Notes under the pieces: model-generated
Database searches by the model: none
What the model saw: the letters and a program-made list of their open reading frames with translations, nothing else
Told to the model about the DNA's origin: nothing
DNA from: a virus
Taxonomy: Duplodnaviria; Heunggongvirae; Uroviricota; Caudoviricetes
Strand: one strand, 5' to 3'
DNA length: 40,135 nucleotides
IMG/VR virus record: IMGVR_UViG_2547132278_000018
Shown: piece after piece, positions 1 to 40,135 of the stretch
Layout: each line of letters opens with the position of its first letter
How positions within the stretch are numbered: position 1 is the first letter of the stretch
Position numbers and translations under genes: made by a program

Positions 1-353
<353 letters not shown>

Positions 354-442
354 TCTATCGCTGATACCCACTATTAGTATCGAGTTGACCGACTGATATG
401 AGAGTTTTTTGTTCATTGAACGCCATCAGAGCGAGTATTACG

Positions 443-1765
443 TTATCTGCCGCCAAACTTAACCTGAACAACATTATCCGTCACCTCATGGCTGGCAGAC
501 TGCGCTACATACCGCTCCACAAAATCCCCCCAGCTCAAAAACAAACTACGCAATTTTTCCGCCTGCTGCCCGACCTGATAGGTTCTGATCAGGCGGTCTT
601 TAGGAATGTGGTTTAACAATCGCTCAATCAGGCGCTCCGGGGCATCCAGATATTCAGCGCAACCAGTAGCGACACTGCGGCGTAAATCATGGGGAGAAAA
701 TGGCTCCAGCTCTGCCAGATATTTTTTACGCAGGCGCTCCAGTGCTCGTGTGACAGCGTCTCCGGTTATAGGGAATCCCTGGTTGCTGGTGGACTCAAAG
801 ACAAATGCGCCTTCGGAGATAATTCGCTGTTTCTTCAGGATAGACAGTGCCAGCGGATGCAGTGTTACTACATGACTTTTACCATTCTTTGTTTCCGGTA
901 TTGTCCAGCGATCGCCGTTGATTTGATCCCAGCGCATTTTAACCGCTTCAGAGCGGCGAACGCCGGTCAGAATAATCAGCTTCAGTGTGTTAGCTATCGC
1001 ATGGGATAAAACGACACTGGAAGCGATACCTTTTCCACCGGTGCTAACTGAACCGCCACCAGCAGTAGCTTCTTCTAGTGTTTTCCAGAGCCGTTGAAGC
1101 TCATCCTGCGATAACCAGCGCTCACGCGGTTTAGCCATGGAAGCACCAAACATCGCCGGTTTTAACAGACGGGCAGGGTTGAGCTCGATTAATCCCTGAA
1201 GTGTGGCATGGTCAAGTGTCATATTCAGGATGATAAGCCCTTTGCGCACACCTTCAGCGCTGGATTGTCGGACTTTGCTCAGGTGTGCAAACAAATATGA
1301 ACGCGATAAATCGCACACTCTCACGGAGCCTAGCCCCTGCTCAAGATGGCGACGATACGTTCCCTTATAATCAGCCAGTGTACGAGCCCCTATTGGCTTG
1401 CTGGTTTCTCTGAATGACAACCAGTTTTCCCACAATTCAGAAAATATGGGCATCTGCTCATTATTCGATTTTTCAGTTTTACGAACGTATCTGGGGTCAA
1501 TTCCCTGCTTCACTAACTCAATGGCTTCAGCATGTGCTTCACGAGCCTGGGCCAGCGTCATTGCAGGATAAGCTCCCAGGGTAATTTTTATCTGCTTGCC
1601 GTTGAGGTAGGGACGGTAGAGCCAACTCTTTGTTTGGCTCCCTGATCGGGATTCGATATACAACCCCGCACCTGCTTTTGATTTGACGCTGACGACAATC
1701 CGGTTTTTTCCTACAGGGGGAACAAGGCTTGCTATCTGTCGATCCTGAGTTATCACTGTTGCCAT
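443..1765 (-). CDS. Tyrosine recombinase/integrase, P4/CP4-type with N-terminal arm-binding domain
   Basis: 440-aa ORF; C-terminal catalytic region with HDLRRS and conserved R/H/Y context; family assignment from recall. Confidence 0.8.
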   Translation of the reverse strand: MATVITQDRQIASLVPPVGKNRIVVSVKSKAGAGLYIESRSGSQTKSWLYRPYLNGKQIKITLGAYPAMTLAQAREAHAEAIELVKQGIDPRYVRKTEKSNNEQMPIFSELWENWLSFRETSKPIGARTLADYKGTYRRHLEQGLGSVRVCDLSRSYLFAHLSKVRQSSAEGVRKGLIILNMTLDHATLQGLIELNPARLLKPAMFGASMAKPRERWLSQDELQRLWKTLEEATAGGGSVSTGGKGIASSVVLSHAIANTLKLIILTGVRRSEAVKMRWDQINGDRWTIPETKNGKSHVVTLHPLALSILKKQRIISEGAFVFESTSNQGFPITGDAVTRALERLRKKYLAELEPFSPHDLRRSVATGCAEYLDAPERLIERLLNHIPKDRLIRTYQVGQQAEKLRSLFLSWGDFVERYVAQSASHEVTDNVVQVKFGGR

Positions 1766-1929
1766 TTTTTCTCATCCCGCGTACTTTTTGGCGTACTTGT
1801 TTAGCATTGTATAAGGCGAAATGGCATGAAACAACGTGAAAGGTGTTTTTGTCTTAATTTATTGATATATATTGTTTTTATGTGATGAAATGGAAGTCGA
1901 TGAAACATTGTGGAAAGTGATATTTTTGG

Positions 1930-1975
1930 ATTCGTAATGCGAAGGTCGTAGGTTCGACTCCTATTATCGGCACCA
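1930..1975 (+). other. tRNA-Thr (thrW) 3' fragment, 46 nt, ending CCA - phage att core, not an intact tRNA
   Basis: ATTCGTAATGCGAAGGTCGTAGGTTCGACTCCTATTATCGGCACCA matches the anticodon-loop-to-CCA portion of E. coli thrW from memory; upstream 30 nt do not match the tRNA 5' half. Confidence 0.8.
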
Positions 1976-1989
1976 TTTAAATCAATAAG

Positions 1990-3153
1990 TTACACATCAT
2001 TAGTACCTTCCTTATTTTTTGACTGGGACAAATTTGGGACCGATGGGTTCAGGATCGAGTCTATTTGCCGTGCGTGTTCGGTAAGGTGATTAGGTGCAAG
2101 GTGAGCATATCGACGAACCATTTCGATAGACTCCCAACCTCCCATTTCCTGTAACACTGACAACGGGACTCCGGCTTGAACCAGCCAACTTGCCCAGGTG
2201 TGTCTCAAGTCGTGAAATCTGAAATCATCAATATCAGCCCGTCTCAGCGCCGCTTTCCAGGCTGTGTTTGCGTCATACCGCATCTTCCTTACTGTTGGCG
2301 CTTTCGTTCCGTCTGGTTTGGTACAGCTTTCCTTGTACACAAATACCCAACGGTGATGATTCCCGATTTGTTTTTTCAATACGCGACATGCAGTATCATT
2401 CAGCGCAACGCCAATTGCGCGGTTTGATTTACTCTCTTCCGGGTTTATCCATGCCACCCGGCGCTGCATATCTATTTGTTGCCATTCAAGGTTGATGATG
2501 TTCGAGCGTCTTAAGCCTGTTGCCAGTGCAAATTCAACAACAGACTTTAATGGCTCCGGACATTCATCAATCAGCCTTTGTGCTTCATGGGGCTCCAGCC
2601 AGCGGATCCGTTTATTCTTTGGTTGAGGCACTTTAATAATTGGTGCCTTATCCAGCATTTTCCATTCACGCTCTGCGGCTCTTAGTAGGGCCTTTATAAA
2701 TGAAAGATGCGTAGCCTTCGTTGCAACGGACGCTGGTTTTGGCGTGTATTCTGGAACAGGTTTCCCTTTTTTTCTGCATGCTTCTGCCCTGAGTTTCCAG
2801 TTTTCCTCATGACGCCGGTTTGTCATTTTCTGCATTGCTGAATAAATTTTTGATTCAGTAATGTCTCTTAGTTGCATTCCTGCGAAATGTTGAAGCCAGA
2901 ATCCGATCCGGCTTTTGTCATCGTCCAGTGATTTTTTATGTGCTTTCTCTTCAAGCCACCTGACACACGCTTCCTCGAACGTTATATCAGGTATTTCACC
3001 AAGTTTGCTGACCCGCCATGCTTCAGCCTTTAGCTTGTCATGGAGTTCTGTCGCCTGCCTTTTGTCCTTTGTTCCAAGAGACTGTTTAAATCTTTTACCG
3101 TTCGGCAATGTGAAACTGGCGTACCATATTTCACCTCTGCGGAAGAGTGACAT
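1990..3153 (-). CDS. int: P22-type phage integrase
   Basis: 387 aa starting [31 protein letters not shown]...; closely resembles phage P22 Int as recalled; C-terminus abuts the thrW core. Confidence 0.93.
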
Positions 3154-3380
3154 TTTCTTTCCTCTGTTATGCCATCACCCGCGCTCACCTGGACAGTATG
3201 CAGCGGAGACTGAAGAGCCGCAATGCAGGCTTGTCGTGTTGTGAGGTAAGGAGATTTATTCTTAGTGGGATCTTTGCGTGTTGCCTGAAGACGCCCCGTG
3301 CGTATCCAGTTAATGGCAGTCGGTCTGGATATCTTGAGAAAATGACAGGCCTCATCGAGTGTGAGGCTGTATGGCTCCAT
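3030..3380 (-). CDS. xis: Excisionase (P22 Xis-like)
   Basis: Start taken at internal Met [38 protein letters not shown] (116 aa); the track's upstream extension is probably not translated. 3' end overlaps int in another frame. Confidence 0.8.
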
Positions 3381-3685
3381 TATTTCACCTCTTGTTGTGA
3401 CATTGTTGAAAAATGGATACCTGCTCGTTGCTGCCAGACGATCCAACCGAGAGTCATATCCCATGCCATGTATTCGTTATCGCCGTTTTTTGCTCTCCGA
3501 CGATCTACTAAGTCACCGAAACGCTTTTCCATGAATAATTCATAAGCTTCGCGTTCATCTGGTTCTACTTCCAGAGATAGGAGTGCGATTTCATAAGTAC
3601 GGCGCTCAATATCGTCTCGCACGTCAAGGCTGCTGATACGCTCTTTAATTTCTTTAATCAGTTCTTTGTCGGTAAAAGTGGTCAT
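3380..3685 (-). CDS. Hypothetical early-left (ea-type) protein
   Basis: 101-aa acidic ORF, GGAGG about 10 nt upstream, start/stop overlap with neighbours (operon packing). Confidence 0.6.
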   Translation of the reverse strand: MTTFTDKELIKEIKERISSLDVRDDIERRTYEIALLSLEVEPDEREAYELFMEKRFGDLVDRRRAKNGDNEYMAWDMTLGWIVWQQRAGIHFSTMSQQEVK

Positions 3686-4047
3686 TATGCTCCAGCCTCC
3701 GGTGCTTTTGGCATTACTGCCCAGTGAGTGATATTGACGTTTTCAAGGTCCCCTACCTGAAATGTCCACTGCCATTCTCCGGTTTCTTTTTGTCCCCAGG
3801 TGTACCAGAGAGAACGCCAGCCAATTAGCCAGCCTTCTCCGTTAGCATCGAATAACAAAACACTTTCATTTGCTGGTGGCAGTTCAGTTGACACTGGTAT
3901 TACTTTGTTTTCCTGTGCTGCACATTTAGCTTCAAGCGCATCGAATTTACGCACCAGGTATTCAGCATCTGTTTCATTCACTTTCAGATCTCGCGGTACA
4001 CATCTCCCACGAAGAAACCCTTCCATTTCGAAAACATTCATGCGCAT
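3685..4047 (-). CDS. Hypothetical early-left protein
   Basis: 120-aa ORF with RBS; W-rich; tightly coupled to flanking genes. Confidence 0.6.
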   Translation of the reverse strand: MRMNVFEMEGFLRGRCVPRDLKVNETDAEYLVRKFDALEAKCAAQENKVIPVSTELPPANESVLLFDANGEGWLIGWRSLWYTWGQKETGEWQWTFQVGDLENVNITHWAVMPKAPEAGA

Positions 4048-4574
4048 TTGCGTAACTCCGATAACTCGTTAAAGCGTTCCATAAACATCCCGTAGGCATG
4101 GCCCGGTGCCAGTGGAATCACGTTGAACATCTCTGTTGCCGGGATACCTTCCAGTACAGGCCAGAAAGAGCCATCATCAAGCCCGAGATCGCGGCGTTCG
4201 GTTGCCAGCATGATGAGATCGGCATATTTCACGGGCGTACTCATAACTGGGGGTAACCTGTATTTCTCACGGATTACGGCGTCTATTTTTTCTTCCATTT
4301 GTTTATAGTCAGGAAGAAGGCGTTTCAGTGGTGCGGGAATGTCCTGACAATACGCTTCTGTTGCATCATGCATTAACGCTTCGAAAGCAAACTCCTGCGG
4401 TACCAGCTGGCTGCAAAGCACCGCATGTTGGGCGACGCTGTAGAAGTGTGAAAGATGCCCTGCAAAGCGACAGATATTTGAGAGGGAAACTGCGATATCG
4501 TTAATCACGATGTCGTCTTTATTTATCCTGTCATAATAAAAATGCTTCCCGGAAAAAGTTTTAATAAATGACAT
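4038..4574 (-). CDS. HD-domain phosphohydrolase (YfdR-like 5'-deoxynucleotidase)
   Basis: Start chosen at MSFIKTF with GGAGA RBS; H..H and HD motifs (SVAQHAVLCSQ, LMHDATEAY). Family from recall. Confidence 0.7.
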   Translation of the reverse strand: MSFIKTFSGKHFYYDRINKDDIVINDIAVSLSNICRFAGHLSHFYSVAQHAVLCSQLVPQEFAFEALMHDATEAYCQDIPAPLKRLLPDYKQMEEKIDAVIREKYRLPPVMSTPVKYADLIMLATERRDLGLDDGSFWPVLEGIPATEMFNVIPLAPGHAYGMFMERFNELSELRKCA

Positions 4575-4701
4575 TTTGTTCTCCACGTATATGCGCTGCA
4601 CCGCGCTGAATTCTGGTAAAAGGAAGCCCTCACCATCCGGTGATTATTGAGTTAATTACGTTTCCATAAATGCCCCCGCAGGGGCATTTGCAGTAATGAA
4701 A

Positions 4702-5526
4702 TCAGGCGGTGAAAGTACCAATAAAGGTTTCGACTTTGCTGTCTTTGAATTTCTCAACAAGCAGATCACGAAATTCGTTAGCCATTTCTTCCTGCACTGC
4801 TTCCAGCTGAATAATGCGCAGAACCAGTACAGGGCGATCACCAGTGATAATGCTGAGTCGTAATTTAAATGGACGTTCTTTCAGGCCTTCAAACGGAACG
4901 CATTTAAATTCAAATGCCACTGGCATAATGTCTTTGGTCTTCGCTTCGACAGACTCCATCAGGGAGCGTTTGCCGCTGAAGTCATTGTCTTCAAAATCAG
5001 CAGTCTGGTTCGCTTCAATTGTGATTTTACGGACTGCCGCAGCCGCTTTTGTTGCCTGAATGGCGTCACCATTAGCATCAAAGCCCACAAGGTAGTCGGC
5101 CCAGTCTTCAATCCATTCTGCCAGTGACTTCTGGGAGTTACGCTCGCCGTTAACAGACAACAGAGCAGAGAACGGTGCTGTCTTTTTCAGTTTGAGAGTG
5201 GCGGTGTTATCTGCGTGACCTGGTTCATCAATAGTACCCAGGTTAAGCACACTGACGGCACGTATATTATCAGCATCGATAAAGCAGCGGGTGCCTTCAT
5301 CTGCAAGATCTTTAGAATAACGGGTAAAGTCATCGATGCTGGCAGTGGAAAGCGCACCACGGAAACGGAAGCGATTTAAATTAAATTTTTCCAGATCATG
5401 AATGCGGAAATTCTCAGGCAATGCCACAGCATCGGCACCAATCTTACTGATAATTTCATTAACACCCTGAGCAGAAATAAGGGCATGGATTTGATTAATT
5501 GCGGTTGCGTCTAAGTTCTGAGACAT
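4702..5526 (-). CDS. YfdQ-like (DUF2303) prophage protein
   Basis: 274 aa, [17 protein letters not shown]...; GAGGAC RBS; recalled as the CPS-53 YfdQ family. Confidence 0.65.
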
Positions 5527-5591
5527 AATAAGTCCTCACTATATAAAGATATTCAGTGATGAGATAAATAATCAGTTAATTAAAAACGATA

Positions 5592-5954
5592 TTAACGACC
5601 TGCTGCGCGGAGTTTTCCGTCAGGTTTACCGGCAAGAGTCAGTAACTGTCCCTGGTCTTCCTGCAGAATAGTCAGGCGACCACCGCGATTGACATACATC
5701 GGCGTTTCGGTGGTGTCTTCTTCGGAAATTTTCCCGCGGTTAGTCGGGCGAACATATGAGAGTTTGTGTTTGATTTTCACACGGTTCTCATCAAATGGTT
5801 CGATTTCCAGGTTGAGTGAGACCTTACCTTTGGTTTTCGTGTTCATCACACCGGAAGCGACTTCACTGAGAACTGCGCCGATTTTGGTTTCAAATACGCC
5901 GCCGTCCAGCTCCCCGATAAATGCCTGCACATCAGTACTGCGTTCGCTAGCCAT
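5592..5954 (-). CDS. YfdP-like prophage protein
   Basis: Start taken at MASERSTDV (GAGGAG RBS 9 nt upstream); the longer track ORF (to 6272) has an Arg-rich non-protein-like extension. Confidence 0.6.
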   Translation of the reverse strand: MASERSTDVQAFIGELDGGVFETKIGAVLSEVASGVMNTKTKGKVSLNLEIEPFDENRVKIKHKLSYVRPTNRGKISEEDTTETPMYVNRGGRLTILQEDQGQLLTLAGKPDGKLRAAGR

Positions 5955-6002
5955 TTTGCTGCTCCTCATCATATCGACCCTGCAAGGACGATTAGTTTCT
6001 CC

Positions 6003-6091
6003 ACAAAACAGAGAAGAACACCTGCGGTGGCAGCCGCCCGGATGGATTGGGTTATGAGCCCGTCGTCCGGTGATGCTCTTCTCTGTTTTGT
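6003..6091. repeat. Perfect 15-bp inverted repeat (ACAAAACAGAGAAGA / TCTTCTCTGTTTTGT) enclosing 59 bp, in the leader of the early-left operon
   Basis: Read directly: arm 1 at 6003-6017, arm 2 at 6077-6091, exact reverse complements. Confidence 0.7.
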
Positions 6092-6392
6092 AAAAAGGAC
6101 GGTACCAGCCGGAAGCAAGGGTACAAACTGGTACCGCCAAGACTACATACAGCATAAAGTTGTGGTGCCGGGTGCCTCCCGGTGCCTGGCGAAGGTTGCA
6201 CACCAGACGGGTGGGTATCCACAGAAGGTCGACTGTCAGCCTCAACCTTAACCCGCGTGCGCTGAGCCGCATTCACCACAACGCTAAGGATTCTCTTTGG
6301 TTGAAAATACTTAGCTGTTATGTGCCTGTCTTTTCACCACTTCAGGCTCGGTGGTATCTTGGTGTTTTCATATAGCCAAGAAGGAAATAGTT

Positions 6393-6584
6393 ATGACCAA
6401 AGAAGAAAAAATTCTTTATTTATTCCAACTATCGGTTAAGACTCACACTGCATATCAGACTGCTGCCATGACATCAGATAAAAATTACAGTACGTCAGAA
6501 AACCCGATAGACGACATAAGCAAGCTTTACGATAAGTTCGAAGCACTACTCGATAAAAAGTTTGCTGAGGCTGGGCTTGAGTGA
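6393..6584 (+). CDS. Small hypothetical protein (63 aa), AT-rich
   Basis: ATG preceded by AAGGA at about 9 nt; MTKEEKILYLFQLSVKTHTAYQ...; converges on and overlaps the 3' end of the 6546-6722 ORF. Confidence 0.35.
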   Translation: MTKEEKILYLFQLSVKTHTAYQTAAMTSDKNYSTSENPIDDISKLYDKFEALLDKKFAEAGLE

Positions 6585-6722
6585 TTGTTGAATAATCGAC
6601 AAAACCCAACTTAAATTTTCGTCAGTGGGCTCGATGCCATGTGCGGTGAGCTCACTTTTCAAAACTCCAAGTAATTCAGAGCTGATTTTCAATATATCTG
6701 CTTGATTTCTAACTATTCCCAC
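6546..6722 (-). CDS. Small hypothetical protein (58 aa from GTG; 68 aa if ATG at 6752), first gene downstream of putative pL
   Basis: GGGAGG then GTG 6 nt downstream; the longer form has an Arg-rich N-terminus (MTARRPREEK). Confidence 0.35.
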   Translation of the reverse strand: MGIVRNQADILKISSELLGVLKSELTAHGIEPTDENLSWVLSIIQQSLKPSLSKLFIE

Positions 6723-6924
6723 TTTTTCCTCCCTTGGTCTACGCGCGGTCATGTTTTACGCCCAAACGACTTCACAGTTATTGTTTAAAATCTGGACTTT
6801 CATTTCATACACCTGCTTTAACATGAGTGCCTGGTGGCACAACATGACTCAACGAATCATCCTGGACTTCATATGCCCCAGGCGGCTACTTCGTGGGCGT
6901 CCTGCCTGTTCGTTATCTTTGATA

Positions 6925-6960
6925 TAAAATCTAACTTAACTTAGTTATTATGGCAAGAGA
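6925..6960 (-). promoter_or_regulatory. Putative pL promoter with overlapping operator (OL)
   Basis: Minus strand: TTGCCA, 17-nt spacer, TAGATT; operator-like CTAACTTAACTTAG (6931-6944) and further CTTAG half-sites at 6971-6997. Confidence 0.4.
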
Positions 6961-7009
6961 AAACACCAAACTTTTCTTAGTTCGGTGCCTTAGTTAGAGA
7001 AGAGAGGTC

Positions 7010-7636
7010 TTAGAGTTCGTATTGAACTCCTTTGACTACACCAATGATAAGGCAATTACCATTGATAGGGATGTTGGGATACCGAGGATTTAATGGCACT
7101 AAAAACTTTTGAGGGCCATCGATGACTAATTTTTTTACTGTAGCTTCGTTTGTTCCATCAAGTCGAGCGATGACTATTTTTCCATGACGAGGTTCTGCAT
7201 CTGGATCTACAATCACTGTTGCGCCTTCTGGTATTGTTGGGAGGCCATTAGGGTTAGTCATGGAGTCACCTTTAACCTCTAATGCAAATGAGTTATCACC
7301 AATCTTTAATGATGTATCTACCCACTTGTCCACTTCACTAAACACTTCTGCTGCCCTGCACTCAGTAAACTGCCCAGCCTGAACCCACGATATTACAGGA
7401 ACTCTGCGCATGTTTGTGACGAGTTTGCCTTCAAACTCAGCACCATAAAGAATGTAATCTATTGACGTATTGAAGAACTTCGCTAATTTCGAAAGCGCCT
7501 CCCCACCAGGGGTATTGATGTCTTTCTCCCAGTACCCCACAGCAACGTCGCTTACTCCACAAAATTTACCCAATTCTTTCTGGGACGTTCCGGTAACTCT
7601 TCTCAGAGCTTTTATACGCTGACCAACCGTTTCCAT
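7010..7636 (-). CDS. CI-type phage repressor (HTH plus S24 LexA-like peptidase domain)
   Basis: 208 aa; N-terminal HTH (QKELGKFCGVSDVAVGYWE), C-terminal autocleavage-type domain (GDSM...K); divergent from the cro-like gene. Confidence 0.9.
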   Translation of the reverse strand: METVGQRIKALRRVTGTSQKELGKFCGVSDVAVGYWEKDINTPGGEALSKLAKFFNTSIDYILYGAEFEGKLVTNMRRVPVISWVQAGQFTECRAAEVFSEVDKWVDTSLKIGDNSFALEVKGDSMTNPNGLPTIPEGATVIVDPDAEPRHGKIVIARLDGTNEATVKKLVIDGPQKFLVPLNPRYPNIPINGNCLIIGVVKGVQYEL

Positions 7637-7658
7637 AGGAGCACCATTTCTTGAATTG

Positions 7659-7721
7659 CTAAGTAATCTTAGTTTTTATTGACCAAAGATAGATTTGTAA
7701 TTAGCATCTAATAAAACTTAG
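7659..7721 (+). promoter_or_regulatory. Putative pR promoter and OR operators
   Basis: TTGACC (7679-7684), 17 nt, TAGCAT (7702-7707); flanking palindromic sites CTAAGTAATCTTAG (7659-7672) and CTAATAAAACTTAG (7708-7721); GGAGGG RBS before cro ATG at 7734. Confidence 0.5.
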
Positions 7722-7733
7722 TTTGGAGGGCGT

Positions 7734-7934
7734 ATGACAACTGACGATATCGAAAGCTACTTCGGCAGTATTGAGAAAGTTGCTGCTTTTTTCGGCATAA
7801 CAACTGAAGCCGTTTATCAGTGGCGAAACCGTCCGGGCCAGTTAATTCCAAAAGGACGTGCAGCAGAAGCTGCATATAGAACTTGCGGACGGTTGCCATT
7901 TAAACCTGAGCTTTATGAAAAATCTAATGGATAA
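7734..7934 (+). CDS. Cro/YdaS-like small HTH regulator
   Basis: 66 aa; first gene of the rightward operon, divergent from cI. Confidence 0.75.
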   Translation: MTTDDIESYFGSIEKVAAFFGITTEAVYQWRNRPGQLIPKGRAAEAAYRTCGRLPFKPELYEKSNG

Positions 7935-8523
7935 ATCGATTAACAGAAACCACAGAACGATGAGGCTAACCGTGGGTAAGCATCACTGGAAAGTAGAAAA
8001 ACAGCCTGAGTGGTACGTGAAAGCTGTCAGAAAAACTATCGCAGCGTTGCCGGGTGGTTACGCTGAAGCAGCTGACTGGCTGGATGTAACAGAAAACGCA
8101 TTATTTAACCGCCTTCGTGCCGATGGCGATCAGATTTTCCCGCTGGGATGGGCAATGATTTTGCAACGTGCTGGTGGAACTCACTTCATTGCTGACGCTG
8201 TGGCGCAGTCTGCAAATGGCGTCTTTGTGTCTCTTCCTGACGTCGAGGATGTGGACAACGCCGATATTAACCAGCGCCTGCTGGAAGTCATTGAACAGAT
8301 TGGCAGTTATTCCAGACAGATTCGTTCGGCAATCGAAGACGGTGTGGTGGAACCGCATGAGAAGACAGCAATTAACGACGAGCTGTATCTCTCAATTTCG
8401 AAGCTGCAGGAGCATGCAGCACTGGTCTACAAAATCTTTTGCATTTCAGAAAGTAATGACGCCCGCGAGTGTGCAGCTCCGGGCGCCGTGGCGTGTCGTG
8501 ACTGTGGAGAAACTAACGCATGA
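7915..8523 (+). CDS. YdaT-like / CII-position regulatory protein
   Basis: About 200 aa from [13 protein letters not shown]; overlaps the cro stop; family from recall of rac ydaS-ydaT. Confidence 0.6.
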
Positions 8524-8698
8524 ACAGTTTAACAACACACTACCGTCGCTCGCAACTGATTGCGCTTCCTGTACCGGGTGGAAAAGCGAAGGTGGAGTAT
8601 TGCTATGCAGTTAATGTACCAGGTGACAGGGAAATTGTAACCCACAGCTTTGCAGAGTGGGCTGTGGGTGATTTCAACCGGCAGAAGGAGACAGTCCT

Positions 8699-8878
8699 TT
8701 GCGACAAGTTAACCGCTGGTTCAAAGATCACTACGGAGTGCCCGTCAGAGTCATTCGTTGGGAGCCGGAAACACAACGGGTTATCTACCTCCGCGAAGGT
8801 TATGAGCATGAATGCTTCAGTCCGCTCGAACAGTTTCGTCGTAAATTCAGGGAAATAGAGGTCGGTCATGAGCACTAA
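8699..8878 (+). CDS. Small protein (59 aa), TTG start, not in ORF track; possibly the 3' part of a frameshifted gene starting at 8520
   Basis: AAGGAG (8685-8690), 8 nt, TTG; translation [59 protein letters not shown]; stop overlaps the start of the replication gene. Confidence 0.35.
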
Positions 8879-9809
8879 ATTAACCGGCTATGTATGGGAT
8901 GGTTGCGCTGCATCAGGCATGAAGTTATCCAGCGTGGCAATTATGGCCCGCCTGGCTGATTTCAGTAATGACGAAGGTGTGTGCTGGCCATCAATTGAAA
9001 CCATTGCCCGTCAGATTGGCGCGGGGATGAGTACCGTCAGAACGGCTATCGCACGGCTGGAAGCAGAAGGCTGGTTAACGCGTAAGGCGCGTCGCCAGGG
9101 TAACCGCAATGCGTCGAATGTTTATCAGCTTAACGTTGCGAAGCTTCAGGCAGCGGCATTTTCTCAACTGTCAGATTCTGACCCGTCAAAATCTGACGCA
9201 TCAAAATCTGACCCGTCAAAATTTGATGCGTCGAAATCTGGCAAAAAAGCGGGTTTTCACCCGTCAGAATCTGGCGGGGATCCGTCAGTAAAATCAAAAC
9301 ATGATCCGTCAGATAAAAAACCTTCTCGTCCGGACGCTTCGCAACCGGACACGCAGACGGCTGAACAGGATTTTTTAACTCGCCATCCTGATGCGGTTGT
9401 ATTCAGCCCTAAAAAGCGCCAGTGGGGGACGCAGGATGATTTGACCTGCGCACAGTGGCTCTGGAAAAAAATCATCGCCCTGTACGAGCAGGCTGCCGAA
9501 TGTGACGGCGAGGTGGTTCGTCCCAAAGAACCGAACTGGACAGCTTGGGCAAACGAAATTCGCCTGATGTGTGTACAGGATGGGCGTACTCACAAACAAA
9601 TCTGCGAGATGTACAGCCGCGTCAGCCGCGATCCGTTCTGGTGCCGTAACGTGCTCAGCCCGTCGAAGCTGCGGGAAAAATGGGATGAGCTTTCCCTGCG
9701 CTTATCGCCGTCCGTCAGCACGTACACCGAAAAACGCGAGGACCCGTACTTCAAAGCCAGTTACGACAACGTGGACTACAGCCAGATCCCGGCAGGATTC
9801 AGAGGGTGA
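8868..9809 (+). CDS. Replication initiator (lambda O-like, HTH N-terminus) containing in-gene iterons
   Basis: 313 aa; N-terminal winged-helix-like region; central low-complexity linker SDPSKSDASKSDPSKFDASKS encoded by DNA iterons. Confidence 0.75.
   Translation: MSTKLTGYVWDGCAASGMKLSSVAIMARLADFSNDEGVCWPSIETIARQIGAGMSTVRTAIARLEAEGWLTRKARRQGNRNASNVYQLNVAKLQAAAFSQLSDSDPSKSDASKSDPSKFDASKSGKKAGFHPSESGGDPSVKSKHDPSDKKPSRPDASQPDTQTAEQDFLTRHPDAVVFSPKKRQWGTQDDLTCAQWLWKKIIALYEQAAECDGEVVRPKEPNWTAWANEIRLMCVQDGRTHKQICEMYSRVSRDPFWCRNVLSPSKLREKWDELSLRLSPSVSTYTEKREDPYFKASYDNVDYSQIPAGFRG
9169..9320 (+). repeat. Iteron array (about 15-bp units CCGTCAAAATCTGAC / GCATCAAAATCTGAC and degenerate copies) - candidate phage origin
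   Basis: Four tandem 15-bp units at 9181-9240 plus degenerate copies on both sides, inside the initiator ORF as in lambda ori. Confidence 0.6.
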
Positions 9810-36784: not shown

Positions 36785-37339
36785 ATGCTTATTGGCTATG
36801 TACGTGTGTCAACAAATTACCAGAACACAGATCTACAACGTAATGCGCTGAACTGTGCAGGATGTGAGCTGATTTTTGAAGACAAGATAAGCGGTACAAA
36901 GTCCGACAGACCAGGACTGAAAAAGCTGCTCAGGACATTATCGGCAGGTGACACGCTGGTGGTCTGGAAACTGGACCGACTGGGGCGCAGTATGCGGCAT
37001 CTTGTCGTGCTGGTGGAGGAGTTGCGCGAACGAGGCATCAACTTTCGTAGTCTGACGGATTCAATTGATACCAGTACCCCAATGGGGCGCTTTTTCTTTC
37101 ATGTGATGGGTGCCCTGGCTGAAATGGAGCGTGAACTGATTGTTGAACGAACAAAAGCTGGACTGGAAGCAGCTCGCGCACAGGGACGAATTGGTGGACG
37201 TCGCCCCAAACTTACACCAGAACAATGGGAGCAGGCCGGACGATTAATTGCATCAGGCGTTCCTCGCCAGAAGGTGGCGATCATCTATGATGTTGGTATA
37301 TCGACACTGTATAAGAAGTTTCCGGTCGGAGATAAATGA
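36785..37339 (+). CDS. Serine DNA invertase (Pin/Gin/Hin family)
   Basis: 184 aa; MLIGYVRVSTNYQNTDLQ catalytic Ser region and C-terminal HTH. Confidence 0.93.
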   Translation: MLIGYVRVSTNYQNTDLQRNALNCAGCELIFEDKISGTKSDRPGLKKLLRTLSAGDTLVVWKLDRLGRSMRHLVVLVEELRERGINFRSLTDSIDTSTPMGRFFFHVMGALAEMERELIVERTKAGLEAARAQGRIGGRRPKLTPEQWEQAGRLIASGVPRQKVAIIYDVGISTLYKKFPVGDK

Positions 37340-37340
37340 A

Positions 37341-37382
37341 ACCGTAGCACGTCGTATGCAAGAAGATCGTGCTGCGGTTTAT
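37341..37382. terminator. Putative bidirectional terminator between convergent invertase and GIY-YIG genes
   Basis: Imperfect 11-bp inverted repeat ACCGTAGCACG / CGTGCTGCGGT; weak U-tracts. Confidence 0.35.
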
Positions 37383-37399
37383 GCTTATCACTTAAAGAC

Positions 37400-38269
<870 letters not shown>

Positions 38270-38352
38270 CTAACCCTTTGAATTTACATAGCGCAAAAAG
38301 ATACCTTTCCTCATAATGTGAGCTAATTTTATGTTTCGTTTGATGATCGGGT

Positions 38353-38413
38353 CGGTCTCGAAAACCGGAGTAGGGGCAACTCTACCGGGGGTTCAAATCC
38401 CCCTCTCTCCGCC
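38353..38413 (+). other. tRNA-Ser (serU-type) 3' fragment, about 61 nt, ending CCA - att-core-like repeat, not an intact tRNA
   Basis: GGTCTCGAAAACCGGAGTAGGGGCAACTCTACCGGGGGTTCAAATCCCCCTCTCTCCGCCA matches the serU 3' portion from memory; upstream does not match the tRNA 5' half. Confidence 0.8.
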
Positions 38414-38987
38414 ACTTTATCAATGACTTATCTCCCGACTTCCCGTCTTGCTTTTCCTAAACAGAACAATCGTAGAATATTCTTGAAGGGTTAGATCGTC
38501 ACTGTTTTCTGTTCGATACTGTGACATTCAGCACTTGATTCGCTATGGATCTGACAGGAAGGTTTTGAGCGAAAATCTGCAGTTATTCAGTCGTTTTCTT
38601 ATCGGTCACCATTATTCTTTTAGACATTGATCCTACAAAGCTGCCGCAAAGTTGGTGGTGGGAACTGAAGTTGCGTAGAGAAGGGGTCAATACCCGGAGG
38701 CAAACATGGGCTGGCAAAAGTGTAGCGGCATTAGGCGCAGCTATTTAGCCTAGTTATGTTTTATGAAAACTTGATATCATATAAGTGTCTTACTTATTGG
38801 CTGTAAATAAGTTTTTCCTAAGGAATTGTTTCTTGAGTATCATTTGTAACTGTAACGGAATTTATAATCCTTTGCTTTATTGTTACGGTATTTTTTATCA
38901 CACCCTATTTTTAGTGGTTTTTTATACTGAAGTTTGGCAAAGTGAACTTTATATACATATACTTCATCCTGGTTTCAGTTAAATTGG

Positions 38988-39740
38988 GTGGATGATATGG
39001 CAACTACATGTTCAGTTATATTGATTTTGGAGTCCTTTGATGTTTATTTCGGAAAAGAGAGTGTGTTTCTGGAGAGAGGTTCATCTGTACTTGTCGACTC
39101 TAGCTCTAGAGATTTTTTCCTGACATATCCTGAAAGAGTGATAGTGGCGGATTTTGGCGCTGAGTTTATTAGTCGCTATTTGAAAGCTAATAACTTAAGG
39201 GATATTTCTGATTGTAGGGAATATCCATCTTATTTAAAAATAAACTTTGCTGACTTCAGTTTAATTAAAGGATTAATTAGTTGGGCTAATCACTGTGCTG
39301 AATACATAGAAATTTTTGATGAGTCTATTGCTTTTACATGTCTCTCTGCATTTTCTTCTGAAAAACAATTTGGAGTATTTCTGTTTGGATGTTTGAAAAG
39401 CACAGGGGCTAAAGTTAAAACGATTATTCATACGGATTTATCTGCACCATGGCGTCTTAAGGATATATCATCAAGATTATATCTCAGCGAAAGTTTACTA
39501 AAGAGGAAATTGAAAGAAGAGGGGGTATCATTCAGTAAGATCATACTTGATGAGAGGATGCAAATGGCTGAATATTTACTCAGCACTCGTTGTTATCCTA
39601 TTAGTAAAGTAGCTAAGGTCTGTGGTTATGCCAGTGTCTCATACTTTACTTATGTATTTAGACGTTATTTTGGTGTTTCTCCAAGTCAATACTCTCAGAG
39701 GAGTTCAGAAAGTAAAATTCTTACTCACCAGGGAATCTGA
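38988..39740 (+). CDS. AraC/XylS-family transcriptional regulator (AppY/GadX-like group)
   Basis: 250 aa; C-terminal double-HTH region (WRLKDISSRLYLSESLLKRKLKEEG ... GYASVSYFTYVFRRYFGVSP); very AT-rich gene and about 570-bp upstream region. Confidence 0.85.
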   Translation: MDDMATTCSVILILESFDVYFGKESVFLERGSSVLVDSSSRDFFLTYPERVIVADFGAEFISRYLKANNLRDISDCREYPSYLKINFADFSLIKGLISWANHCAEYIEIFDESIAFTCLSAFSSEKQFGVFLFGCLKSTGAKVKTIIHTDLSAPWRLKDISSRLYLSESLLKRKLKEEGVSFSKIILDERMQMAEYLLSTRCYPISKVAKVCGYASVSYFTYVFRRYFGVSPSQYSQRSSESKILTHQGI

Positions 39741-39745
39741 TCATT

Positions 39746-40135
39746 GTTCTTGCCCCCTTATTTCCAGACAGGGGGTGTATCTTAAGTTAACGTTACCCGC
39801 TGACGTCGATATTCTCGCGGAGAGCGATAACCCAACGCACTGTGCGGATGGTTTTCATTGTAATGTTCGATCGCCACTGCAAGATTATGCAATGCCGTTC
39901 TTACATTCGGTTTCGGCATGAACGCGATGTAGTCTTCCTTCATCGTTTTCACGAACCTTTCTGCAATTCCATTACTCTGAGGACTGCTGATTGCCGTTGT
40001 GCAGGGCTCCAGATTCAACTCTCTGGCGAACTGCCGTGTTTCATGCGCTCTATACGCTGAACCGTTATCTGTCAGCCACTGGATGGACTGTTCCGGTACT
40101 TTATCGCCGAAGCGTTTTTCTATCGCTCCTAACAT
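39746..40135 (-). mobile_element. IS3-family (IS2-like) insertion sequence, end fragment running off the window
   Basis: Terminal sequence TTGCCCCCTTATTTCCAGACA resembles the IS2 end; contains the transposase C-terminus. Confidence 0.8.
39782..40135 (-). CDS. IS2-like transposase OrfB (InsD-like), C-terminal part (partial)
   Basis: ...[27 protein letters not shown]...[14 protein letters not shown], characteristic of the IS2 InsD C-terminus. Confidence 0.85.

Follow-up and report, generated by a model that had tools for sequence, protein, structure and literature searches.

Two integrases facing one segment of thrW

The current study examines the left end of the IMG/VR virus record IMGVR_UViG_2547132278_000018, a 40,135-nucleotide (nt) stretch of Caudoviricetes DNA that is referred to in its entirety as the window. 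At this locus, a short segment of the Escherichia coli tRNA gene thrW is enclosed by two integrase (int) genes, one belonging to a genomic island and the other to a prophage. The features upon which the interpretation of this junction depends are the following:

443–1765, minus strand: island integrase gene, encoding a tyrosine recombinase of 440 amino acids (aa), with Pfam domains PF13356 Arm-DNA-bind_3 (DUF4102; 9e-17) and PF00589 Phage_integrase (6.7e-18)
1766–1929, no strand assigned: island P arm and the region upstream of the island int, identical in enterotoxigenic E. coli (ETEC) E24377A, where it is followed by the thrW fragment and yagP
1930–1975, plus strand: 46-nt 3' segment of thrW, an attachment (att) core common to island and phage, read here as island attR and prophage attL in one
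1976–1992, plus strand: the 17 nt past the tRNA end, TTTAAATCAATAAGTTA, ending at the phage int stop codon and defined by comparison of att contexts
1990–3153, minus strand: prophage integrase gene of the SfIV/P22 type, 387 aa (Pfam Phage_integrase, 9.6e-48)
1930–40135, no strand assigned: prophage, delimited by identity to the prophage of ETEC L5_E1779 and running off the right end of the window

The central fragment, ATTCGTAATGCGAAGGTCGTAGGTTCGACTCCTATTATCGGCACCA, occurs only once in the window (1930–1975, plus strand) and in none of 100 dinucleotide-preserving shuffles. It matches positions 31–76 of the annotated thrW genes of K-12, E24377A, and ETEC L5_E1779 at 46 of 46 positions, starting at the final base of the anticodon stem's 5' strand and continuing to the CCA end of this tRNA-Thr gene (anticodon CGU). 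The original prediction, which had been made from the letters of the window alone, described a 46-nt tRNA-Thr 3' fragment at this site, and the alignment with thrW of related strains now identifies it as an exact copy of the 3' part of that gene. The same 46 bases are printed as the attP, attL, and attR core of phage SfI, with an identical core stated for SfII, SfV, SfX, and P22 (PMC3636060), and the 46-bp site of SfIV is likewise identical to the fragment (PMC3851460). The earlier statement that the fragment lacks the tRNA 5' half was right in substance, as the thrW 5' half finds no match in the 30 nt upstream of position 1930 and the Rfam score of the region falls below the gathering score (see below). 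No second copy of the core was found in the window, even when 3 mismatches were allowed across the last 25 nt, presumably because the window stops just before the phage attR.

The island int starts 164 bp to the left of the fragment and the phage int stop codon lies 14 bp to its right. The N-terminus of the 443–1765 product and the C-terminus of the 1990–3153 product both face the fragment, just as originally proposed. The sequence immediately beyond the tRNA end was compared among the att contexts of the window, E24377A, 2024CK-00535, ETEC L5_E1779, and ET210. In the phage P' arm, positions 1976–1992 are the same as in the island P' arm (represented by E24377A attL), except for base 1978. This base is a T in the window, in ETEC L5_E1779, and in E24377A attR, whereas 2024CK-00535, ET210, and K-12 have an A. 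AGTTAC is also present in the native B' flank.

The prophage, the island, and their combination in other genomes

The right element is an SfI/SfIV-like prophage. Its integrase had been classified as P22-type, which agrees with a 99.7% identity to the Int of Shigella phage SfIV across 387 aa and with the presence of the published 46-bp core alongside; its matches include 78 phage records at 80–90% identity, and 79 of the matching records overall are from Salmonella phages. The prophage of ETEC L5_E1779 (NZ_LR883006.1) is 100% identical to window positions 1930–9600 and 99.993% identical to positions 9501–40135. In that strain, the prophage sits directly at an intact thrW and its far end carries a 46-nt core copy beside yagP/pao, 355 bp past the match of the window end. 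Judging from this relative, the attR core copy of the window's prophage should lie ~355–400 bp beyond position 40135.

The left element is a defense island. Positions 349–1975 of the window recur at 99.8–99.9% identity in 32 complete E. coli records among the matches listed, and the island int, P arm, and fragment are together 99.9% identical in ETEC E24377A, which carries the island whole and alone (~25 kb) with proA-thrW on one side and a yagP remnant and paoD on the other. From the thrW side, the order is thrW, a hypothetical gene, an AlpA-like helix-turn-helix (HTH) gene, a YagK/YfjJ ("inovirus-type Gp2") gene, a hypothetical gene, zorDCBA (type I Zorya), a type I restriction-modification (R-M) system with a DUF4268 gene, a UvrD-like helicase gene, a hypothetical gene, the integrase gene (minus strand), and the 46-nt fragment. 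The integrase gene occupies the thrW-distal end, with transcription directed into the island. An identical 440-aa protein occurs in 1406 blocks of public assemblies; in 10 of the 10 places shown, it adjoins the hypothetical, UvrD, and HsdR genes of the island, and the far side of the fragment in the places shown is taken up by yagP/pao, phages with SfIV-type int, a DUF3987/AlpA satellite-like element, a Hachiman/AbiJ island, or insertion sequence (IS) elements. A further ~520 complete E. coli records carry a homolog of the island int with 75% identity. Both ends of the island are identical in two chromosomal backgrounds, one with a yagP flank (E24377A) and the other with an int-remnant/yagU flank (SK1144), which suggests that the island is itself mobile by its own site-specific recombination.

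The island integrase had originally been labeled as P4-type, which fits its domain architecture only (Arm-DNA-bind_3 with Phage_integrase). On the curated NCBIfam model of P4/CP4-57-like integrases (PRK09692), it scores 80.9 bits versus a cut-off of 434, and no phage integrase exceeds ~28% identity to it. Furthermore, P4, CP4-57, and KpLE2 have int immediately downstream of an intact tRNA gene and in the same orientation, whereas the island int is divergent from a partial tRNA copy and stands at the thrW-distal end, the position of intF in CP4-6. K-12 IntF was ruled out as an ortholog on the basis of its 23% identity. The left integrase should consequently be recorded as part of a defense island and not of a P4 prophage. 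Within the P arm of this island, there are two pairs of direct repeats, namely 1779–1789/1791–1801, in which GCGTACTT(T/G)TT appears twice, and 1826–1850/1900–1924, two 25-nt copies of 76% identity. The 1779–1801 pair and the int-proximal half of 1766–1929 are conserved in the 75%-identical island of sequence type 131 (ST131), and these repeats are candidate Int arm-type or regulatory sites.

Each element is found alone at thrW with precise boundaries, the island in E24377A and the phage in ETEC L5_E1779, and the two are also found together. The same junction of island, fragment, and phage int is present in 5 complete records (2024CK-00535, two records of strain 167, strain 148, and SL124), which are 99.5–99.7% identical to the window from position 349 onward. 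In the same-junction records, the island separates the fragment from proA-thrW, which lies ~25 kb upstream, and in 2024CK-00535 the thrW beside proA is intact. The phage of 2024CK-00535 shares just its int-to-early region (~97–99%) with that of the window and the phage bodies differ; therefore, the island-phage arrangement arose more than once. The left end of the island is preceded by an intact thrW in 37 records and by the fragment in 7 others, where the match begins exactly at thrW position 31. In strain H1, the match before the island begins at thrW position 28, behind a different integrase element. The reverse order exists as well: strain 101EVA reads proA, thrW, a prophage with SfIV-type int, the fragment, the Zorya island, its int, the fragment, and yagP. 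TST3 has phage tail genes and a retron ahead of the fragment and island, and SK1144 has an E24377A-type island followed by a short P22-type int remnant. The thrW gene is listed among the tRNA genes (tDNAs) most frequently targeted in E. coli (PMC7545054).

Taken together, we consider it very likely (roughly 85%) that the 46-nt fragment is a hybrid attachment site inside an island-prophage tandem array at the E. coli thrW hotspot. The arrangement is of a known kind, tandem accretion at this hotspot, and both elements as well as their combination are already present in public genomes. The source strain presumably shares the upstream structure of its relatives, including the island and an intact thrW. 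The original prediction had envisaged a prophage in tandem with an older island whose intact thrW lies upstream; the tandem is supported, as is a thrW ~25 kb upstream in the same-junction relatives, while the relative age is not supported, for reasons given under the order of arrival.

Two of the strains examined carry further complexity at this site. In 2024CK-00535 (NZ_CP157243.1), no core copy for the phage attR was found and the phage end is disrupted by IS903B/ISKpn26. Past these insertions is a CP4-6/CP4-44-like block (type I R-M, GTPase, Ag43, DUF932, and antirestriction genes), and the whole looks like a three-element array with an IS-damaged junction. In the ST131 strain 18044, remnants of the C-terminal part of P22-type int are found after the intact thrW and again after the island's distal fragment. 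With remnants at both ends, the P' side of the island therefore seems to carry a piece of phage int, which hints that the att regions of island and phage have exchanged sequence.

A tRNA-like call at the junction

One further feature overlaps the P arm and needs to be considered together with the fragment:

1896–1929, plus strand: pseudo 5' half that prompts an ARAGORN tRNA call, with a GTCGATG complement and a defective D arm and anticodon stem

ARAGORN reports an 80-nt tRNA-Thr(cgt) at 1896–1975, which raises the question of whether the island has rebuilt a functional 80-nt tRNA-Thr(CGU) gene at its end. The call is made because GTCGATG at 1896–1902 pairs 7/7 with the 3' strand of the acceptor stem, two of these pairs being G-U, and is spaced from it roughly as a tRNA would require. 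Such an acceptor complement exceeds chance: after shuffling of the upstream 164 nt, a tRNA-Thr(cgt) call was obtained in just 3 of 2000 trials and any tRNA call in 16 of 2000. The acceptor stem aside, the predicted cloverleaf is poor, with only 3 weak pairs in the D arm and one mismatch in the anticodon stem, and the Rfam tRNA model gives 1896–1975 a score of 16.7 bits versus the gathering score of 29; across the whole window, nothing reaches any Rfam gathering score. A consensus scan of 1650–2150 yielded no sigma-70-like promoter, and neither promoter nor terminator was found near the fragment. Likewise, records carrying the identical sequence have no tRNA feature annotated at the fragment, and the 5' part (1896–1929) is not conserved in the alignment with the ST131 homolog. 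A functional tRNA gene is accordingly given almost no credence, and 1896–1975 is a pseudo-tRNA. It does not constitute a conserved pseudo-tRNA feature either, a notion that was rejected given the same ST131 alignment and the silence of ARAGORN at both the homologous ST131 junction and K-12 CP4-6 attR. The complement in 1896–1929 may have decayed from a fuller copy of thrW that once lay in the att region of the island. For annotation purposes, the locus is best described as an att junction (island attR/prophage attL) and not as a tRNA-Thr gene.

A similar annotation is encountered in H1 (NZ_CP010160.1), in which a 112-nt "tRNA-Ser" is annotated over the thrW fragment between a 357-aa integrase and the left end of the Zorya island. 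This is probably another pseudo-tRNA at an att junction.

A model for strand exchange at thrW

The position at which the two integrases might exchange strands can be approached through the left edges of thrW identity, which led us to mark one additional feature:

1931–1937, plus strand: anticodon loop TTCGTAA, putative overlap region for both integrases, placed from the edges of thrW identity

The first thrW position matched was compared across five junction types, which represent at least three unrelated integrases plus one uncompared integrase:

Sf/P22-type phage: thrW position 31
E24377A-type island: thrW position 31
ST131 island: thrW position 32
K-12 CP4-6: thrW position 28
Further element in strain H1: thrW position 28

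In all five junction types, the left edge of thrW identity falls 0–4 nt from the 5' edge of the anticodon loop. Strand exchange for all of the compared elements would thus probably take place within the 7-nt anticodon loop, and published classifications of tRNA integration sites agree with exchange at this position.

Several inferences can be made from such a model. Firstly, as both integrases recombine at thrW and strand exchange would occur in the loop, each integration would rebuild an intact thrW at the proximal end and leave a 5'-truncated copy at the distal end. Secondly, restoration of the tRNA at attL would require the sequence right of the loop to match thrW, whereas on the left a match would be dispensable. 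Thirdly, at the middle junction of a two-element array, the proximal element would contribute its P arm to the left side and the distal element its P' arm to the right side. The window junction has the island P arm on the left and the phage P' arm on the right, as the model expects.

A bolder extension of this model, which we regard as quite improbable, is that hybrid junctions are substrates for either integrase, such that a Zorya/R-M island could target the attL of resident prophages and move or excise together with them. The tRNA-like 5' complement of the island would then be a relic of attL targeting, or an aid to it. This extension draws upon the apparent sharing of loop exchange by several integrase lineages, i.e. 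the Sf/P22 type, the E24377A-island type (including the 75%-identical relative in ST131), the CP4-6 integrase IntF, and the uncompared H1 integrase.

Order of arrival

The structure of the junction is identical whichever element arrived first. The original prediction had nonetheless described the island as the older element, on the premise that tandem integration reuses the distal tRNA copy. Superinfection of SfX lysogens with SfI led to integration of the newcomer at the SfX attL, which carries the intact thrW, immediately upstream of the resident, and the site was the same in 24 clinical isolates of serotype X that SfI had converted (PMC3306764). Both the premise and the age assigned to the island run counter to this experiment; in nature, both orders occur. 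If the newcomer-at-attL rule is general, the thrW-proximal island of the window would therefore be the later arrival. The presence of an identical prophage at an intact thrW in L5_E1779 also fits this sequence of events, and we lean slightly toward a later entry of the island, at the prophage attL with its regenerated thrW.

Conversely, the island could have been resident first, with the phage later entering its distal 46-nt thrW copy (the island attR) as a secondary attB. This scenario, which we consider possible if somewhat doubtful, yields exactly the observed junction; island-only genomes such as E24377A provide possible precursors, and many different elements are found distal to the fragment of this island. 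It has to contend with an island attR that is devoid of the native left half-site, as the thrW 5' half is replaced there by the island P arm, and with the preference of a newcomer of the same integrase family for attL and its intact tRNA in the SfX lysogens and the converted clinical isolates alike. Under the attL rule, a phage arriving second would produce the order seen in 101EVA rather than that of the window, and the L5_E1779 prophage, as mentioned, is at an intact thrW.

We also attempted to read the order of arrival from polymorphisms 3' of the tRNA (+3 T/A and +11/12 TA versus AG), which were set aside as uninformative, since they vary by lineage and by phage copy. In addition, no single-crossover model with a K-12-type attB fits E24377A attL and attR together.

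A third scenario dispenses with successive integration in the source lineage, the array having been imported or reshuffled by homologous recombination, either in flanking DNA or in the 46–63-bp core, after transduction or conjugation. The thrW region is certainly highly mosaic, with many element combinations distal to the same island, and the tandem genomes found carry another phage body with the int-early region alone in common (~97–99%), so modules have been exchanged. Nevertheless, in every genome examined, the junctions lie precisely at the att core, as site-specific events predict, and nothing in the window requires import. We view this scenario as unlikely, and the nature of the junction would be unchanged either way.

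Returning to the hybrid attachment site in a tandem array and to the island as its second arrival, a number of points count against our interpretation. The thrW gene, the rest of the island, and the phage attR all lie outside of the window, and the array is reconstructed from relatives. Beyond the IS100 element at the left edge of the window, the island could be truncated or rearranged. For either integrase, the crossover position is deduced from identity edges, and the bases 3' of the tRNA (+3, +11, and +12) vary by lineage in a manner that goes beyond one simple crossover model. The order of arrival is unreadable from the junction itself, and lysogenization by temperate phages is likely to be far more frequent than island transfer, which favors entry of the phage into the island attR. 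As a general matter, the proximal element of a tandem at a tRNA hotspot should not be assumed to be the older one, as the available experiment points in the opposite direction and both orders exist in E. coli.

The window edges and neighboring genes

Three further features flank those described above:

1–353, minus strand: IS100 (IS21 family), left end, matching at 100% identity an IS100 copy annotated istA/istB in ET210
354–442, no strand assigned: island sequence 3' of the island int, shown by local BLAST to be collinear with the intact island of E24377A
3030–3380, minus strand: gene for an excisionase-like HTH protein, which relatives annotate with 116 aa; it overlaps the start of the phage int

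The istA start codon is at position 267 and the gene reads toward position 1, while the outer terminus of the element, ...GTGACA, ends at 353; the IS100 of strain C11 shows the same end. The insertion point maps to E24377A bases 319153/319154, within the spacer that separates a hypothetical gene from the int stop codon, and the IS100 end lies 89 bp past the stop of the island integrase gene. Presumably, IS100 inserted at this position downstream of the island int after the array had formed. The IS21-family insertion invoked in the original prediction is this IS100, whose other end lies outside of the window, and it may have truncated the island. The IS100/island junction is absent from 5426 complete E. 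coli genomes, the GTDB species representatives, and JGI metagenome contigs, and a look-up of the exact island integrase protein returned only contigs without an adjacent IS100. The sequence directly outside IS100, TCTATCGCTGATACCCACTAT (354–374), resembles the flank CATTCCCTGATTACCACTAT of an independent IS100 copy in C11, which also adjoins an island with an "inovirus-type Gp2" gene. This likeness could reflect either target preference or homologous island sequence.

On the phage side, the 3030–3380 product matches the NCBIfam "excise" domain at 1e-5 and 25.8 bits, which is under the cut-off of 28.8; relatives annotate it as an HTH protein, and the SfIV record as "excisionase". According to the annotation of L5_E1779, the att-proximal cargo at ~36785–40135 consists of a pinE invertase, a LEM-3-like GIY-YIG protein, an AraC-family regulator, and a truncated "integrase core domain" (transposase-like) gene. 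By the same annotation, the gtr/oac serotype-conversion genes of the Shigella relatives are missing from this cargo.

Comparison with known systems

The significance of the current findings is mostly a matter of annotation hygiene, with the locus serving as one more documented case of thrW as an accretion site at which anti-phage islands and prophages are stacked. The closest experimental parallel is provided by the SfI-SfX tandem lysogens of S. flexneri (PMC3306764), in which two elements likewise lie downstream of proA-thrW and are parted by the same 46-bp core, and the integrase family involved is that of the window's phage Int. In those lysogens, however, both elements are phages with related integrases and a known order, whereas one of the two elements in the window is a non-phage island with an unrelated integrase.

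Among individual elements, the thrW island of E24377A is the same element as window positions 349–1975, although it is alone, is followed by yagP after the fragment, and has no IS100; the type I Zorya system that has been tested experimentally came from this strain. Similarly, the ETEC L5_E1779 prophage and SfI/SfIV/SfV-type phages in general share with the window the same 46-bp core as well as a phage int whose C-terminus abuts the tRNA 3' end, while L5_E1779 has an intact thrW 5' half before the core in place of the island P arm.

More distant parallels are found in K-12 and ST131. K-12 CP4-6 uses the same tRNA gene as the island and has a thrW-distal intF (minus strand) transcribed inward, followed by a 5'-truncated thrW copy and yagP/pao, but its IntF has just 23% identity to the island integrase, it duplicates a block of 49 nt and not of 46 nt, and its cargo is entirely different. 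The ST131 GI-thrW comes closer to the arrangement of the window, with a homologous island int (75% DNA identity), the fragment, and then P22-type int sequence; junctions of this type are found in ~520 of the 5426 complete genomes and are 86% identical to that of the window. Unlike in the window, the P22-type int of the ST131 GI-thrW is a remnant of 144–204 nt, the example read has a pseudogene for the island int, thrW identity runs from position 32, and the cargo comprises type I R-M and AbiE.

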